A stretch of DNA of 64,000 bases from positions 365 to 64,364 of the forward strand of contig JAUPTX010000001.1 of NCBI GenBank assembly GCA_030917865.1, written 5' to 3'. Origin of the DNA: Patescibacteria group bacterium. Its GTDB lineage: Bacteria > Patescibacteriota > Minisyncoccia > Phycocordibacterales > CSBR16-119. A model generated the notes under the pieces. The model ran no database searches and was not told the DNA's origin. It worked only from the letters and a program-made list of their open reading frames with translations. The first letter of the stretch is position 1. Every line of letters starts with the position of its first letter. This document shows, piece after piece, positions 3,938 to 27,771 of the stretch. A program made the translations under genes and the position numbers.

Positions 3938-4366
3938 GGGCTTTTGAAGCCTAAATGTGCTTTTCAAGTATTCTGGGTAGTATGAGAAGAATCCTCTCTT
4001 ACTTATTCCAGAAATATATTTCAATTTCATATCAGCAATTTCTTCACTATCAAATTCATTTGGAAACATATCTGTTTCCTTGTATGAAAGTAGGGTTCTC
4101 TGAAACTCACGCAGTTCACAGAACGCTCTATAGTAGACTTCACGCCTTTTTTGTAGATCTTTGAATTCTACTCGGTTTCTATATAGACCAAGGTGAAAAT
4201 CAGGTTCTTGCGCTATGCTTTTTATGGTTGAATTAAAATCACTTTCATGAATAATCGTGTAGATTTTCTTTGCCTCCCTGACTTTTTTGTGGAGTTTTGA
4301 AAGCTTGATAAACATCCATCTAACGTAGTGAGCGTAAGCTGCGAAGATTACTAAAAAGTACAACAT
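3920..4366 (-). CDS. Hypothetical membrane-anchored protein, antisense to the spc operon
   Basis: 148-aa ORF with an N-terminal hydrophobic helix (MLYFLVIFAAYAHYVRWMFI). It fills the whole secY-adk gap and contains no motif I recognise. Confidence 0.55.
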   Translation of the reverse strand: MLYFLVIFAAYAHYVRWMFIKLSKLHKKVREAKKIYTIIHESDFNSTIKSIAQEPDFHLGLYRNRVEFKDLQKRREVYYRAFCELREFQRTLLSYKETDMFPNEFDSEEIADMKLKYISGISKRGFFSYYPEYLKSTFRLQKPKTKPR

Positions 4367-5900: not shown

Positions 5901-8642
5901 ATGGAAGGTACATATTTTAAAGAAGCACCAAAATTTAATTCTCCAGAAGAGGAGATTAAGTTTTTGCGCGATCATATAGAAAATAGGGAAAAAGAACTTC
6001 GAGAATCTGGAACAGAAAAAACAAAAGAACAAGTGACAAAAGAAGCTTTAACAGCGTATGATCTTTTACCTAAAGAAGAAATTTTACATAAAAATTATGT
6101 ACAAAAAGAAGAAGATATAGACGCTATTGTTTTGCGATTAAAGCCAGAGGCTCATGATGAAAAAATATCAGAGCTTTATGGCTATCTTCTAGAAAATGGT
6201 TTGAAAAATACTTTAGATTTGGTTTCTAGGATGAACGACCCACATATAGAAGACGATTTTCATCGTTTTCTTGTGCAGTTTTTGCATGCCTCTGGAGAAG
6301 TCCCAGGTCTTCGCGAAGGTTCTCCAGAATTTAAATCTTTGAATCTTGCTTTGTTTGAAGTAACTCTTCCCGGAAATGTAAAAGAAGAAAAGAAAACATT
6401 CGTAGACTTTATCACCGGCATGAAACAGTTTCTTTTGGGTATGCAGTCTATTTCTCGCGGAGAGAATAATAAAGAAAAGCAGTATTACACTTTAGAAATA
6501 GCAAATAGTGCTAATTCAAACGATTTGGTTATTTACGTTTCTATTCCAAAAGAAAAAAGAGAGCTTTTAGAAAAACAGGTCTTGGCTTTCTATCACGATG
6601 CAAAAGTTAAAGAGTGTGTAGACGACTACAATATTTTTAGTATGGATTCTTCGGTTGTGGCTTCATATGCTTCTTTGTCAAAAGAAGATGTTTTTCCGAT
6701 TACAACATACGAAGATTTAGGTCATGATCCGATGAGTGCTGTTTTGAATGCTTTTTCAAAGCTGGAAAAAGTCTCAGAAGGTGCTGCTATACAGATAGTG
6801 GTGACTCCAGTAGGTGACGGTATGATAAAGAAATTTTCTTCAATTTTAGAGAAAGTTAAAAAGGGAGAAAAGTTAAAAGACGCAATGGATGAATATGGAG
6901 AAATAAAAAAAGAATTGAAAAATTTTGCTGCTGGAATTTTTGCTCCTAAAAAAATAGATGAAGATCAAAACAAAGAAAAAGATATAGATTCTGACATAAT
7001 AGAAGCGATAAATATAAAACTCAAAAGCACGATAGTTGATACAAATATCAGAATAGTTGCTTCTGCTCAAAGCAAATCTAGAGCCGAAGATATTGCTTCA
7101 GATATCGAATCATCTTTTGAGCAGTTTAATAAAGCAAAGCACAATAGTTTTAAATGGAATAGAGTTGGTCCAAAAGACTTGTCTTTGTTTTTGCATAATT
7201 TTTCTTTCAGACTTCAAAACGAAAAACACTCAGTGCCTTTGAATTTAGAAGAGCTTTCTACTATTTTCCATTTCCCAATTAGTGAAAATGCTACACCGGA
7301 ACTCAAAGAATCAAAAGCTGGACAGGCGCCAGCTCCGACAGATATGGGCGACTCTGGCGTGCTTTTGGGTAAAAATATTTACAGAGGAAAAGAAACACCA
7401 ATTTTAATGGACTCAGAAGACCGTATGCGACACTTCTATGTTATCGGTCAAACTGGAACAGGTAAGACAACAATACTTAAAAATATGATTGCTCAAGATA
7501 TTCGCAATGGCCATGGTTGTTGCTTTATCGATCCACACGGCACAGATGTTCAAGAAATTTTAAGTTATGTTCCAAAAGAGAGAATGGAAGACGTGATATA
7601 TTTCGATCCTTCTTTTACAGAGCGTCCAATGGGGCTCAACATGCTTGAGTTTGATTCAAATTACCCAGAACAAAAAACTTTTGTTATAAACGAACTGATG
7701 GGAATTTTCAACAAGCTTTTTGATATGAAAGTGGGCGGAGGTGCGATGTTTGAACAATATTTCAGAAACAGTACTGGACTTGTGATGGAGCATCCAGAAT
7801 CAGGAAATACATTGCTTGAAATAGGGCGTGTTTTGTCTGATAAGAAATTCCGCGATATGAAACTCGCAAATTGTAAAAATCCTTTGATTAAGCAATTCTG
7901 GAAAAGTGCAGAAGCAACTTCTGGTGAACAAGGTCTTGAAAATTTCGTGCCTTATATCACTTCGAAATTTGATGGATTTTTGTCGAACGAGATTATGCGT
8001 CCGATAGTAACTCAAGAAAAATCTGCGTTTAATTTCAGAGAAATAATGGATAACAAAAAAATCCTTTTGGTAAATTTAGCAAAAGGTCGTTTGGGTGAGA
8101 TAAACTCAAACCTTATCGGTATGATTTTAGTTGGTAAACTTCAAATGGCAGCACTTTCAAGAGTTGATTTGTATGGAAAGAAAATGAATGATTTTTATCT
8201 ATACATAGACGAATTCCAAAACGTCACCACAGATTCTATCTCGTCAATTCTCTCAGAAGCTAGAAAATACAGACTTTCTCTTAATATGGCTCACCAGTAT
8301 ATCGCCCAGTTGGAAGACGGTATCCGCGATGCGGTATTTGGAAACGTTGGTTCTATGGCTGTCTACCGAGTTTCTCCTGAAGACGCAGAATTTTTAGAGA
8401 AAAAATTCCAGCCTATTTTCACCGCGACAGATATTACTAAACTCGACAACTTTAATTCATATGTAAATATGCTTTTGCGTGGAACTCCGACTAAACCTTT
8501 TAGTATGGAATGTCACTGGTCTATAATCCCGTCAGGGGACAAAGATATGGTGGATTCTCTAAAACAGCTTTCGTATTTGAAATTTGGAAGACCGAGAGCT
8601 GAGGTGGAAAATGAGATTTTGGAGAAATTTGAGAAAATGTAG
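5901..8642 (+). CDS. VirD4/TraD-like (FtsK/HerA superfamily) P-loop ATPase with an uncharacterised ~480-aa N-terminal region
   Basis: Walker A is YVIGQTGTGKTT and Walker B is FYLYIDEFQ. The RKYRLSLNMAHQ segment is typical of coupling-protein-like ATPases. No hydrophobic N-terminal helices are visible. Confidence 0.7.
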   Translation: MEGTYFKEAPKFNSPEEEIKFLRDHIENREKELRESGTEKTKEQVTKEALTAYDLLPKEEILHKNYVQKEEDIDAIVLRLKPEAHDEKISELYGYLLENGLKNTLDLVSRMNDPHIEDDFHRFLVQFLHASGEVPGLREGSPEFKSLNLALFEVTLPGNVKEEKKTFVDFITGMKQFLLGMQSISRGENNKEKQYYTLEIANSANSNDLVIYVSIPKEKRELLEKQVLAFYHDAKVKECVDDYNIFSMDSSVVASYASLSKEDVFPITTYEDLGHDPMSAVLNAFSKLEKVSEGAAIQIVVTPVGDGMIKKFSSILEKVKKGEKLKDAMDEYGEIKKELKNFAAGIFAPKKIDEDQNKEKDIDSDIIEAINIKLKSTIVDTNIRIVASAQSKSRAEDIASDIESSFEQFNKAKHNSFKWNRVGPKDLSLFLHNFSFRLQNEKHSVPLNLEELSTIFHFPISENATPELKESKAGQAPAPTDMGDSGVLLGKNIYRGKETPILMDSEDRMRHFYVIGQTGTGKTTILKNMIAQDIRNGHGCCFIDPHGTDVQEILSYVPKERMEDVIYFDPSFTERPMGLNMLEFDSNYPEQKTFVINELMGIFNKLFDMKVGGGAMFEQYFRNSTGLVMEHPESGNTLLEIGRVLSDKKFRDMKLANCKNPLIKQFWKSAEATSGEQGLENFVPYITSKFDGFLSNEIMRPIVTQEKSAFNFREIMDNKKILLVNLAKGRLGEINSNLIGMILVGKLQMAALSRVDLYGKKMNDFYLYIDEFQNVTTDSISSILSEARKYRLSLNMAHQYIAQLEDGIRDAVFGNVGSMAVYRVSPEDAEFLEKKFQPIFTATDITKLDNFNSYVNMLLRGTPTKPFSMECHWSIIPSGDKDMVDSLKQLSYLKFGRPRAEVENEILEKFEKM

Positions 8643-16033: not shown

Positions 16034-16047
16034 AATGTTTTTAAGAG

Positions 16048-16419
16048 TGGAGATGGGGGGAATCGAACCCCCGTGTAAATGAGTTTTTAATAAAGGTCTA
16101 CATGTTTAGAATGTTTTTTGTTTTAAACTTATAACCTATTAAACAAACAAAACGATTATAAGTCGATCTCTTGATTTTAATCCGCTGGTCGAGAATTCCA
16201 GAAGCTTATTCCGATTTTATGATACCAATTTCGCCCTATCGGAAATCGAGCAAATTGGCACTAGCATTAAATATTTATGCTAGAGCAAAACCTCTCACTT
16301 GAAATGGAGATTTTACTAGTCCGTTAGATTTTGCATCTAAGGTTTTAGAAAGTTTTACGAGTTATCAAGCTCGACATGCGTTTATTAAAAATTTTCAAAT
16401 ATCAAGACCAATCATCCCC
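16048..16419 (-). ncRNA. ssrA: tmRNA (one-piece); predicted tag AKSNGLVKSPFQVRGFALA
   Basis: The 5' GGGGATG pairs with the 3' CATCTCC-A and includes a G3.U wobble. The T-arm is GGGGG-TTCGATT-CCCCC. GCATGTCGAG...CTCGTAAAA precedes the reading frame GCA...GCT CTA GCA TAA (16334 down to 16275). CCA is not encoded. Confidence 0.9.
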
Positions 16420-19391: not shown

Positions 19392-19465
19392 CCACCCTTA
19401 GCTCAGTTGGTTAGAGCACAGAGCTTATACCTCTGGGGTCCTAGGTTCGAATCCTAGAGGGTGGA
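19392..19465 (+). tRNA. tRNA-Ile (anticodon UAU)
   Basis: Acceptor CCACCCT/AGGGTGG, D-arm GCTC/GAGC, anticodon arm CAGAG-CTTATAC-CTCTG, T-arm CTAGG-TTCGAAT-CCTAG. No CCA is encoded. Confidence 0.85.
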
Positions 19466-19480
19466 CTCTGGAATAAATCA

Positions 19481-27237: not shown

Positions 27238-27303
27238 CTGGTTATATTATATCAGGGCAGGGGTGGAATTAACTGTGTATTTGTGGTAATCTGGTGTTCA
27301 TAC

Positions 27304-27390
27304 GGAGACGTGTCAGAGTGGTCTAATGTGCCTCCTTGCTAAGGAGGTGGGCTTTAATCGGCCCCGAGAGTTCGAATCTCTCCGTCTCCG
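27304..27390 (+). tRNA. tRNA-Ser (anticodon GCU), class II
   Basis: Acceptor GGAGACG/CGTCTCC, anticodon arm CCTCC-TTGCTAA-GGAGG, long variable arm, T-arm GAGAG-TTCGAAT-CTCTC, discriminator G. The D-stem is weak (T10 opposite T25). Confidence 0.85.
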
Positions 27391-27416
27391 CAAAAGTCGA
27401 GCAAAGCGAGAGTTTT

Positions 27417-27606
27417 GCGGAGACGAGCAAAATACATTTATGTATTTTGTGTGAGGATTCGAAAGACGGAGGCGGTATACAAGACGAGCGAAGCGAGTGC
27501 TTGTCGCCGAGTCCGGGGAGGAAGTTCTTAATAAATTATGATCCGCCATGGGCGGAGAAATAATTTATTTAGAAACTTGACCCCGAATCTCTACGTCTCC
27601 GCACCA
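27417..27606 (+). other. 190-nt highly structured element closed by an acceptor-like stem and ending in ACCA (tRNA-derived remnant or ncRNA)
   Basis: GCGGAGACG (27417-27425) pairs with CGTCTCCGC (27594-27602), followed by ACCA. Internal hairpins lie at 27428-27449, 27483-27505 and 27530-27569. Confidence 0.4.
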
Positions 27607-27609
27607 CAT

Positions 27610-27696
27610 GGAGGATTGGGTGAGTGGCTTAAACCAGCGGTTTACTAAACCGCCGAGGGGTAAAACCCTCCGAGAGTTCGAATCTCTCATCCTCCG
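27610..27696 (+). tRNA. tRNA-Ser (anticodon ACU), class II
   Basis: Acceptor GGAGGAT/ATCCTCC, D-arm GGT/ACC, anticodon arm GCGGT-TTACTAA-ACCGC, variable stem GAGGG/CCCTC, T-arm GAGAG-TTCGAAT-CTCTC, discriminator G. Confidence 0.8.
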
Positions 27697-27771
27697 CATA
27701 TTTTAACGCAGTGAAAAAGAGCCCTCTAGGCTCTTTTTGTTTGAGTATAAAACTAATATATAATCAAATCC

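Follow-up and report, generated by a model that had tools for sequence, protein, structure and literature searches.

Integrative elements that target transfer RNA (tRNA) genes leave the tRNA intact and carry a direct repeat that runs from inside the T-loop to just past the discriminator; they are present or absent at orthologous tRNAs, and they form tandem arrays. All of this also holds for an element that we describe here in a 64,000-nucleotide (nt) stretch of a Patescibacteria group bacterium genome (GenBank assembly GCA_030917865.1, contig JAUPTX010000001.1, forward-strand positions 365 to 64,364), the whole of which we call the window. Positions 27392-27609 of the window, between the genes for tRNA-Ser(GCU) and a second tRNA-Ser with anticodon ACU, are one intact copy of an uncatalogued family of structured elements, ~125-215 nt long, that stand behind tRNA genes of Candidate Phyla Radiation (CPR)/Patescibacteria. 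Unlike the integrative elements, the element is only ~200 nt long without integrase or cargo, has an extra, inverted copy of the tRNA segment, and has as its interior a conserved, covarying, strand-specific RNA fold that is nearly identical behind many tRNAs.

Miniature inverted-repeat transposable elements (MITEs) and the small palindromic repeats REPIN, Correia, RPE, and BOX are likewise short, noncoding, hairpin forming, multicopy, and bounded by inverted repeats. A MITE was among three readings offered in an original prediction made from this DNA, and the multiple copies, noncoding nature, richness in hairpins, and apparent mobility of the element agree with it. The inverted repeats, however, are not the element's own: they are copies of the adjacent tRNA and change with it from copy to copy, so the copies share no terminal inverted repeats. 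The family is also tied to tRNA 3' ends, covaries as a three-way junction, and has no known parent insertion sequence. Dispersed copies with 2-10-nt target duplications were not found; the window holds one copy in 64 kb, with a flanking repeat of ~20 nt.

In mascRNA (MALAT1), the tRNA-like domain of transfer-messenger RNA (tmRNA), and bacterial Y-RNA modules, a closing helix mimics the acceptor and T stems, as it does here, and the element shares with them a place in or beside tRNA transcription units, where release by RNase P or 3' processing is plausible. It differs from them in having no T-loop/D-loop elbow, in a helix that copies the neighboring tRNA, and in a CCA that is not conserved; the Rfam mascRNA and tmRNA models have no match on it. 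The Xanthomonas small RNA sX4 (Rfam RF02223) gives a weak but recurrent partial match over the tRNA and, downstream of it, a strand complementary to the acceptor 3' strand. At 24-37 bits, against a gathering score of 70, this match covers the tRNA and first hairpin only and never the core; its recurrence suggests that a "tRNA then anti-acceptor strand" layout may exist in Proteobacteria.

Two further comparisons concern tRNA introns and riboswitches. The tRNA genes of Patescibacteria contain group I introns in the anticodon loop, at position 35/36 (PMC13011429). The element shares their host lineage and their association with tRNA genes, and four members stand behind intron-split tRNA-Asn genes, but the introns are larger and match a group I model, whereas the element follows its tRNA and has no match among intron models. 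Riboswitch aptamers built on three-way junctions share with it a junction that is purine rich and invariant, stems that vary and covary, and a sequence-free closing helix with an alternative partner. Here, by contrast, no consistent downstream gene family follows, and the alternative partner is the upstream tRNA.

A conserved fold between two tRNA-Ser genes

What occupies the 218-nt spacer between the two tRNA-Ser genes? Its repeats and hairpins far exceed chance, and the source of both arms of the element is the last ~20 nt of tRNA-Ser(GCU), from C56 to G73 plus CA. An inverted repeat joins 27383-27398 to 27410-27425 (16 nt, 94% complementary); its core is the perfect 13-nt inverted copy of the tRNA 3' strand that the original prediction had pointed out. 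The inverted arm (27413-27425) can pair either with this tRNA 3' end or with a direct arm at 27594-27603, and the acceptor-like pairing proposed earlier for 27417-27425 and 27594-27602 is borne out as a 10-nt, 100% complementary repeat (27416-27425 with 27594-27603). The tRNA 3' end is indeed also repeated in direct orientation at 27575-27603, with 19 of 20 positions identical between 27584-27603 and 27372-27392. What had been taken for a 6-nt deletion in that copy is really the junction of a conserved core strand—the 3' strand of the P5 arm, GUGAC in the family consensus and UUGACCC in the window—with the tRNA-derived arm, which starts at C56 of the T-loop; the junction is identical in all members, exactly at U55|C56. 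The three interior hairpins of the first description were all recovered (27428-27437/27440-27449, 10 bp; 27483-27490/27498-27505, 8 bp; and 27530-27539/27560-27569, 10 bp, with an inner stem of 6 bp at 27542-27547/27551-27556). The spacer folds at -85.2 kcal/mol, compared with -53.0 +/- 4.3 in shuffled sequences (z = -7.55; 0 of 200 shuffles as good), and its reverse strand is nearly as stable, with a similar z-score. Its G+C content is 46%, vs. 35% for the window.

Relatives were sought by using the neighboring DUF3095 gene as an anchor, which led to six related CPR genomes. An orthologous copy in another species (locus L005; neighboring protein 78% identical) is 80% identical to the window copy, with blocks of up to ~40 nt at 100% identity, and has P2 and the P5 tip swapped for different, fully complementary sequences (P2 reads GAACACAAAU/AUUUGUGUUC there). 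A hairpin also stands at the site analogous to P2 in L050. Two open reading frames (ORFs) overlap the window copy, 27313-27549 on the reverse strand and 27336-27563 on the forward strand; neither has a Pfam match, and both are interrupted in L005 by non-triplet indels that leave the frame unconserved, so they are noise, as first supposed. Together, the perfect blocks, compensated stems, and non-triplet indels indicate a structured nucleic acid rather than a coding or neutral remnant.

How widespread is the family? An exact scan of public metagenome contigs for the core 18-mer GGATTCGAAAGACGGAGG returned 91 loci, most of which extend to the whole element; because all members beyond L005 were reached through this single 18-mer, the sampled diversity is biased. 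An alignment of 41 sequences, with the window copy in the seed, served for the consensus and for a covariance model, R1. The model matches the window copy at 27433-27612 over its full length (1-170) with 128.9 bits (E = 1e-38), and it makes 106 matches in 98 loci, some of them to divergent copies without the 18-mer. The same core is found in L005, in L084, and in more than 60 loci that were not needed for the seed. Assignment of the family to CPR/Patescibacteria rests on the six GTDB loci and on the Patescibacteria-type introns of tRNA-Asn (PMC13011429).

The consensus fold (MAFFT/RNAalifold, 41 sequences) is a three-way junction of 27 pairs, 15 of them with double changes. P3 pairs GGAUUCG with CGAAUCC, is extended by four to five variable pairs, and leads into an AAA junction; P4 has the form GAC..GGC[variable hairpin]GCC..GUC, and P5 the form GGUCG.../...UGACC[variable hairpin]. 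The junction is purine rich (GAAAGACGGAG ... CCGAGUCGGGG), and the window copy conforms to the invariant core GGAUUCGAAAGACGGAG ... CCGAG ... GGG ... CCGAAUC. In the R1 alignment, 94% of cells are paired, vs. 78% in shuffles and 29-45% with slid partners; compensatory changes occur in 23 of the 27 pairs, and the covariation score is 0.356, vs. 0.116 in shuffles and ~0.05 with slid partners. These counts lean toward structure because the alignment was fitted to the model; the independent MAFFT/RNAalifold consensus agrees with them. In the core helices G.U pairs greatly outnumber A.C (~21 vs. ~3), which identifies the folded strand as the tRNA-sense strand. A hairpin-tip motif, GA-RY-NNN-RY-GA (mostly GAGC GAA GCGA), occurs 36 times in 70 elements, vs. 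3.7 expected; the tips of P4 and P5 often have it, and in the window it stands at 27399-27410 and 27486-27497. The motif joins a GNA triloop to what may be tandem G.A pairs, a combination suggestive of a site for protein binding or of a mini-hairpin of the DNA type.

The element belongs to no catalogued RNA family that we could find. With Rfam 15, positions 27392-27609 had no match at E <= 10 except sX4 (37.5 bits vs. 70); no model reached its gathering score on the element in the window or in 26 related loci, and none matched it at E <= 1 in 14 loci. Phage and plasmid collections held no match, and no description of it turned up in the literature, which was searched by topic and by core sequence. 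In viral contigs, the terminal-repeat pattern had 11 matches, about the number expected by chance and none resembling the element; the anticodon-arm pattern of tRNA-Ser(ACU) had none, and the three matches to two core patterns were all unrelated sequence sharing only the pattern. By-eye likenesses to RNase P CR-I, signal recognition particle domain IV, and hammerhead/hairpin ribozyme cores were dropped, as the motif order or the defining part fails and no model matches; so was a likeness to the retron msr/msd layout, with no model match and no reverse transcriptase gene. The original prediction had allowed that the element might be a mere decaying duplication or might fall into a known family. 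Many conserved copies elsewhere, a consensus fold supported both by RNAalifold and by the R1 alignment, and an Rfam search that assigned no family dispose of the first possibility and give no sign of the second.

Table 1. Coordinates of the element, its neighbors, and related features (window positions unless a locus is named)
Feature	Position	Strand	Evidence or remark
tRNA-Ser(GCU), anchor gene	27304-27390	+	ARAGORN; Rfam tRNA 51.8 bits; 100% identical in L003, L004
Trailer and loop of first hairpin (AAAAGUC...GAGUUUU), tip motif GAGCAAAGCGAG	27392-27412	+	Position of the A-tract/hairpin/T-tract (terminator-like) module of other members; weak in window copy
Inverted arm, acceptor part TTTTGCGGAGACG	27413-27425	+	Reverse complement of 27383-27395 (tRNA 3' strand and trailer)
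Variable hairpin P2 (CAAAAUACAU/AUGUAUUUUG)	27426-27450	+	Between acceptor complement and T-stem complement; subfamily specific
T-stem complement (GUGA) and P3 5' strand GGAUUCG	27451-27461	+	Reverse complement of tRNA T-loop/T-stem start; helix 1
Junction J3/4 (AAA)	27462-27464	+	Within invariant GGAUUCGAAAGACGGAG block; invariant alignment columns
P4 arm: GAC/GUC base, internal loop, GGC/GCC, distal hairpin 27483-27505	27465-27513	+	Helices 2 and 3 covary; tip motif GAGCGAAGCGAG on distal hairpin; internal loop with possible tandem G.A
P5 arm: GGG/CCC and AAGUU/AACUU base, variable distal extension 27530-27569, inner stem 27542-27556	27516-27583	+	Helices 4 and 5; compensatory changes in 7/7 pairs of helix 5; one pair has 22 G.U
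Direct arm CGAAUCUCUACGUCUCCGCA	27584-27603	+	tRNA C56 to G73 plus CA, one substitution; 3' strands of P3 and closing helix
CCACAU: CCA and 5' leader of next tRNA	27604-27609	+	Not conserved in family
Second tRNA-Ser, anticodon ACU	27610-27696	+	ARAGORN; Rfam tRNA 52.5 bits
Hairpin and T-run (AAAAAGAGCC CUCUA GGCUCUUUUUGUUUG) after second tRNA	27701-27751	+	Inverted repeat and direct reading
Sub-threshold sX4 match	27290-27428		Also L035, L064, L069, L099
Pseudo-tRNA with conserved element	L084 413-520; L033 510-600; L029 6500-6592	L084 -; L033 -	L084 Ser; L033 Tyr; L029 Ala
Intron-split tRNA-Asn upstream of element	L037 ~6200-6330; L042 ~4192-4340; L107 3440-3600; L112 ~773-920	L042 -; L112 -	

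Arms derived from the neighboring tRNA

Which genes do the elements follow? For 47 of 70 strong matches, a same-strand tRNA ends 14-52 nt upstream (42 nt in the window, where the match begins at 27433). These tRNAs cover 19 anticodon types and include Tyr, all Ser isoacceptors, Gln, Asn, Arg, Leu, Glu, Trp, Val, Ile, Pro, Ala, Asp, and Lys. Four additional copies stand behind intron-split tRNA-Asn genes that ARAGORN missed (Table 1), and some of the remaining elements are behind pseudo-tRNAs or another element. The 3' exon of the split genes reads ...GGTCGCAGGTTCGAATCCTGCCGCCGGAGC, or a close variant, after intron-like sequence, in agreement with group I introns at 35/36 (PMC13011429).

The usual order is tRNA, CA, A-tract/hairpin/T-tract, inverted arm, core, direct arm. 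Positions 54-73 (+1-2) of the tRNA recur in the inverted arm as their reverse complement, often with an additional A or two, and positions 56-73 (+1-3) recur in the direct arm as a copy. In most copies the best match of the inverted arm is the 3' end of its own tRNA (19-21 of ~21 positions in many), and in most members the direct arm is identical to the tRNA over 18-24 nt and then stops sharply: similarity ends 1-3 nt past position 73 and does not reach the tRNA terminator, one tandem array excepted. Even P3 tracks T-loop variants of the adjacent tRNA in L073, L045, and L111 (tRNA TTCGAGTCC gives P3 GGACUCGAA in L073, and tRNA TTCGATTCCCC gives P3 GGGGAAUCGAA in L111). Behind tRNA-Val (L050 and L036), whose stem has a G.U, the inverted arm reads GAGGG and not GGGGG; it complements the 3' strand and does not repeat the 5' strand. 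The closing helix, built of an inverted and a direct copy of the tRNA 3' end, would imitate the stacked T-stem/acceptor-stem minihelix of the tRNA, with the core in the place of the T-loop.

A CCA directly after position 73 was found in 8 of 59 arms, vs. 9 of 110 tRNA genes. The idea that the direct arm is a retro-copy of mature tRNA is not supported: this CCA enrichment is weak, and the inverted arm copies the genomic trailer, not CCA. The 3' CCA to which the original prediction had drawn attention is real at 27604-27606 but is missing from the orthologous copies in L005 and L084. A search for core-less precursor palindromes (GGATTCGAATCC) found none in 769 kb of loci. Either arm may be decayed while the other is intact, which suggests that both were seemingly perfect at the origin of a copy and later only partly constrained. 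Among decayed inverted arms that might recall a former tRNA, only that of L034 is suggestive, being closer to Ser(UGA) than to its own Ser(ACU), a comparison confounded by the near-identity of these two tRNAs.

The second tRNA-Ser deserves mention in its own right. An A at position 34 is unusual in bacteria outside tRNA-Arg(ACG). The gene for tRNA-Ser(ACU) is conserved in L003 (159-245), L004 (735-822), L034 (9543-9629), L044 (115-202), and L095 (1322-1409), which marks it as a real, lineage-specific tRNA; it may have inosine at position 34 or reflect a decoding oddity. The hairpin and T-run that follow it were not flagged by the terminator scan but likely terminate the tRNA-Ser/element/tRNA-Ser unit. 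Neither that scan nor reading of the sequence found a strong terminator inside 27392-27609.

Gain, loss, and retargeting of the element

Do element interiors travel with particular tRNAs? Only 4 of 48 elements have their nearest relative behind the same tRNA type, and a 60-nt block of the window copy, in the P4 region, is 100% identical to copies behind tRNA-Asn (L030) and tRNA-Ser(GGA) (L099). Interiors are thus decoupled from tRNA identity. Orthologous sites also differ in whether they have the element: behind the identical tRNA-Ser(GCU), L003 and L004 lack it and have unrelated cargo between the two tRNA-Ser genes. Tandem arrays have the repeat unit [direct arm/hairpin/inverted arm/core], and in both L045 and L049 elements stand behind three of five tRNAs. 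Overall, the element has been gained, lost, and retargeted over evolutionary time. It is well conserved behind heavily decayed pseudo-tRNAs (Table 1) and is therefore under stronger constraint than the adjoining redundant tRNA copy.

No protein gene is linked to the element; the 56 downstream ORFs are unrelated singletons on either strand and thus lack the consistent gene family that would mark a riboswitch or leader. Several observations concern the surroundings of individual copies. The region 3' of tRNA-Ser(GCU) is a variable hot spot (window 27391-27610; L003 245-2281; L004 822-2175; L005 1-2178), occupied in L004 by an endonuclease/exonuclease/phosphatase-like ORF and a dCMP-deaminase-like ORF, in L003 by ~1.3 kb of G+C-rich sequence without long ORFs, probably foreign pseudogenized DNA, and in L005 by DNA methyltransferase fragments. 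Read-level (Logan) contigs of the same species break inside the tRNAs and give no filled/empty comparison: L009 and L010 end at window ~27329, and L012-L014 start at window ~27668. L008 encodes the identical DUF3095 protein with an extra 187-aa gene upstream of it. The breaks in both tRNA-Ser genes and this extra gene suggest strain-level rearrangement around the locus.

Locus L039 (1-3200, JACCDH011157894.1) is a 3,200-nt contig with one family member, whose inverted arm matches tRNA-Gln; it has no tRNA and no 3' direct arm but a DUF3800 ORF and several small ORFs of unknown function. Its 127-nt terminal direct repeat marks it as a 3,073-nt circle or tandem unit, and it could be a vehicle for the element or a cargo-bearing relative. 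Upstream in the window lie a standard tmRNA (16045-16419, 124.7 bits) and a tRNA-Ile with anticodon UAU (19392-19466). L093 has a tmRNA (2-416) and tRNA-Ile(UAU) (6092-6166) along with tRNA-Ser(GCU), which suggests a genome related to that of the window; it holds two tandem elements ~3.4 kb away from tRNA-Ser(GCU).

Explanations for the element and their consequences

What kind of element is this? The reading that we modestly favor is that of a tRNA-gene-targeted, probably mobile, structured RNA element that is released from the tRNA-Ser operon by tRNA processing. A small, nonautonomous element of this kind would target the segment of tRNA genes from T-loop to 3' end, duplicate it, and carry or regenerate a complementary, guide-like arm. 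The window copy would be transcribed within a tRNA-Ser(GCU)/element/tRNA-Ser(ACU) operon; 3' processing of the first tRNA and an RNase P cut before the second would free an RNA of ~215 nt, whose 3' end would be set by RNase P at the 5' end of tRNA-Ser(ACU). The conserved junction may be a functional module for protein binding, ligand binding, or catalysis. The arms might have arisen by integration at the T-loop and their subsequent conversion, by a ~20-bp target duplication with a guide-like inverted arm, or by self-primed (snap-back) copying at the tRNA terminator; none of these three options matches a described mechanism. As an alternative chemistry of movement, the three-way junction might itself catalyze a reaction at U55|C56. 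We put forward more tentatively, as a doubtful further step, that the family is either an RNA-structured element free of protein genes that retargets by copying ~20 nt (C56 to the discriminator) in two orientations or a sensor RNA that gates the maturation of its tRNA.

Several points weigh against the reading that we favor. That the element acts as RNA is judged here from its sequence. No transposase, integrase, or reverse transcriptase is linked to it, and we know of no transposition chemistry that gives both an inverted and a direct copy of a target. Filled and empty sites that share identical flanks were not recovered, so the insertion boundaries are deduced rather than observed, and gene conversion among copies in one genome could also decouple interiors from tRNA type. 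Only one of the eight tRNAs in the window bears an element, and neither blastn nor model R1 found further copies in its 64 kb. One arm is decayed and the other intact in many copies, so a full closing helix is not strictly required. In most members the terminator-like A-tract/hairpin/T-tract between tRNA and element disfavors efficient cotranscription. Finally, GC-GNA-GC triloop tips are more usual in stable mini-hairpins of DNA than in RNA.

The features of the family also bear on several rival explanations. It is unlikely that the element is a host-serving, riboswitch-like cis-regulator of the upstream tRNA, with the three-way junction as aptamer or protein sensor. Its closing helix would compete with pairing between inverted arm and tRNA 3' end and so gate folding, processing, or decay of the precursor, and its copies would have spread by duplication and been matched to their tRNAs by selection. 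Such a role would fit the aptamer-like layout (invariant junction, covarying variable stems, sequence-free closing helix), an inverted arm that in the window can take either the tRNA 3' end and trailer (16 nt, 94%) or the direct arm (10 nt, 100%) as an equally good partner, the match of the arms to the local tRNA, and a core kept even beside a decayed tRNA copy. Over half of the tRNAs in L045 and L049 bear elements, which would be unexpected for junk in ~1-Mb genomes. The aptamer, however, has the competing strand upstream of it, and by the time the inverted arm is made the tRNA would already have folded; a terminator-like hairpin usually stands between tRNA and element; many copies have one decayed arm; elements in tandem arrays and behind pseudo-tRNAs have no tRNA to regulate; and the same tRNA occurs without the element in L003 and L004. 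Less probable than such a regulator is a folded single-stranded DNA element—a structured recombination site or single-stranded DNA satellite, like integron attC or the attP of CTX phage—in which the stem imitates the duplex at the 3' end of a tRNA gene and a recombinase supplied in trans (Xer or an integrase) acts on it. In the window copy the two strands have similar folding z-scores, the one or two extra A usual in the inverted arm recall the extrahelical bases of attC, and the GC-GNA-GC hairpin tip is ~10-fold above expectation; likewise, the unit of the tandem arrays is the expected content of a circular intermediate, and L039 is possibly a 3-kb circle with one module. The direct repeat begins in the T-loop, as in class II tRNA integration sites, which Williams reportedly described in 2002 as having a direct repeat that starts within the T-loop. 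The preponderance of G.U over A.C in the core is strand specific, however, and fits RNA better; there is no linked recombinase, phage and plasmid collections are without matches, and a site bound by a recombinase would have no need of a conserved three-way junction whose two arms are long, variable, and covarying.

We hold it to be very unlikely that the element is a tRNA-Ser pseudogene or split tRNA, that is, a truncated copy of acceptor and T-arm with an intron-like insertion in the T-loop or, in equivalent terms, an intron that separates tRNA position 55 from 56 and repeats the 3' exon at its own 5' end. The window copy, taken as RNA, does run in the order acceptor 5' strand (GCGGAGACG), hairpin, T-stem 5', core, T-stem 3', acceptor 3', A, CCA; the junction falls exactly at U55|C56 in every member; and tRNA introns are abundant in Patescibacteria (PMC13011429). 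Against this, the upstream tRNA is complete and uninterrupted and needs no splicing, the inverted arm behind tRNA-Val is a complement of the 3' strand and not a copy of the tRNA 5' strand, no group I or group II intron model matches, and the only tRNAs that ARAGORN and the Rfam model call in this region are 27304-27390 and 27610-27696. The direct arm also has a T-stem mismatch in the window and an indel in L005. The degenerate tRNA-Ser with an insertion, another of the original readings, thus captures the likeness to an acceptor/T-stem minihelix copy interrupted in the T-loop, but what is inserted is a three-way-junction RNA that is conserved, covaries, and stands behind 19 kinds of tRNA. The remaining one, a cotranscribed tRNA-like noncoding RNA, agrees with the place of the element inside a tRNA operon here, but the ACCA end that prompted it is not conserved. 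Each of the three was partly right, and by itself none suffices. Displaced tRNA 3' ends are classic attR sites, and one is present here; the interval between the tRNA-Ser genes is, moreover, a hot spot with different cargo in L003, L004, and L005. That the element is an att-site scar or decaying local duplication left by a deleted island, with hairpins that arose by chance, is nonetheless exceedingly improbable: the interior is conserved across species and 98 loci with compensatory changes, the complete unit is ~200 nt everywhere, and no integrase remnants or credible ORF lie between the repeats. We regard this reading as refuted by the family-wide conservation and covariation.

What would these elements mean for their hosts? 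CPR/Patescibacteria have the smallest and most streamlined bacterial genomes. If the reading that we favor is true, these genomes hold an abundant, unrecognized class of structured RNA wired to individual tRNA genes. If retargeting is true as well, the element would be a programmable, guide-bearing mobile RNA/DNA element with a mechanism unlike that of any described transposon, intron, or integrative element; if instead a recombinase acting in trans moves it, it would be an unusual miniature integrative element, yet still a new RNA family. As a new RNA class with strong covariation, it offers more than 100 examples for tests of catalysis and of ligand or protein binding, and model R1 can be used to annotate it. 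The element also explains assembly breaks and miscalled ORFs beside tRNAs in CPR genomes, and the matching of arms to tRNAs by a gene-less element of 200 nt bears on RNA-guided or self-templated mobility.

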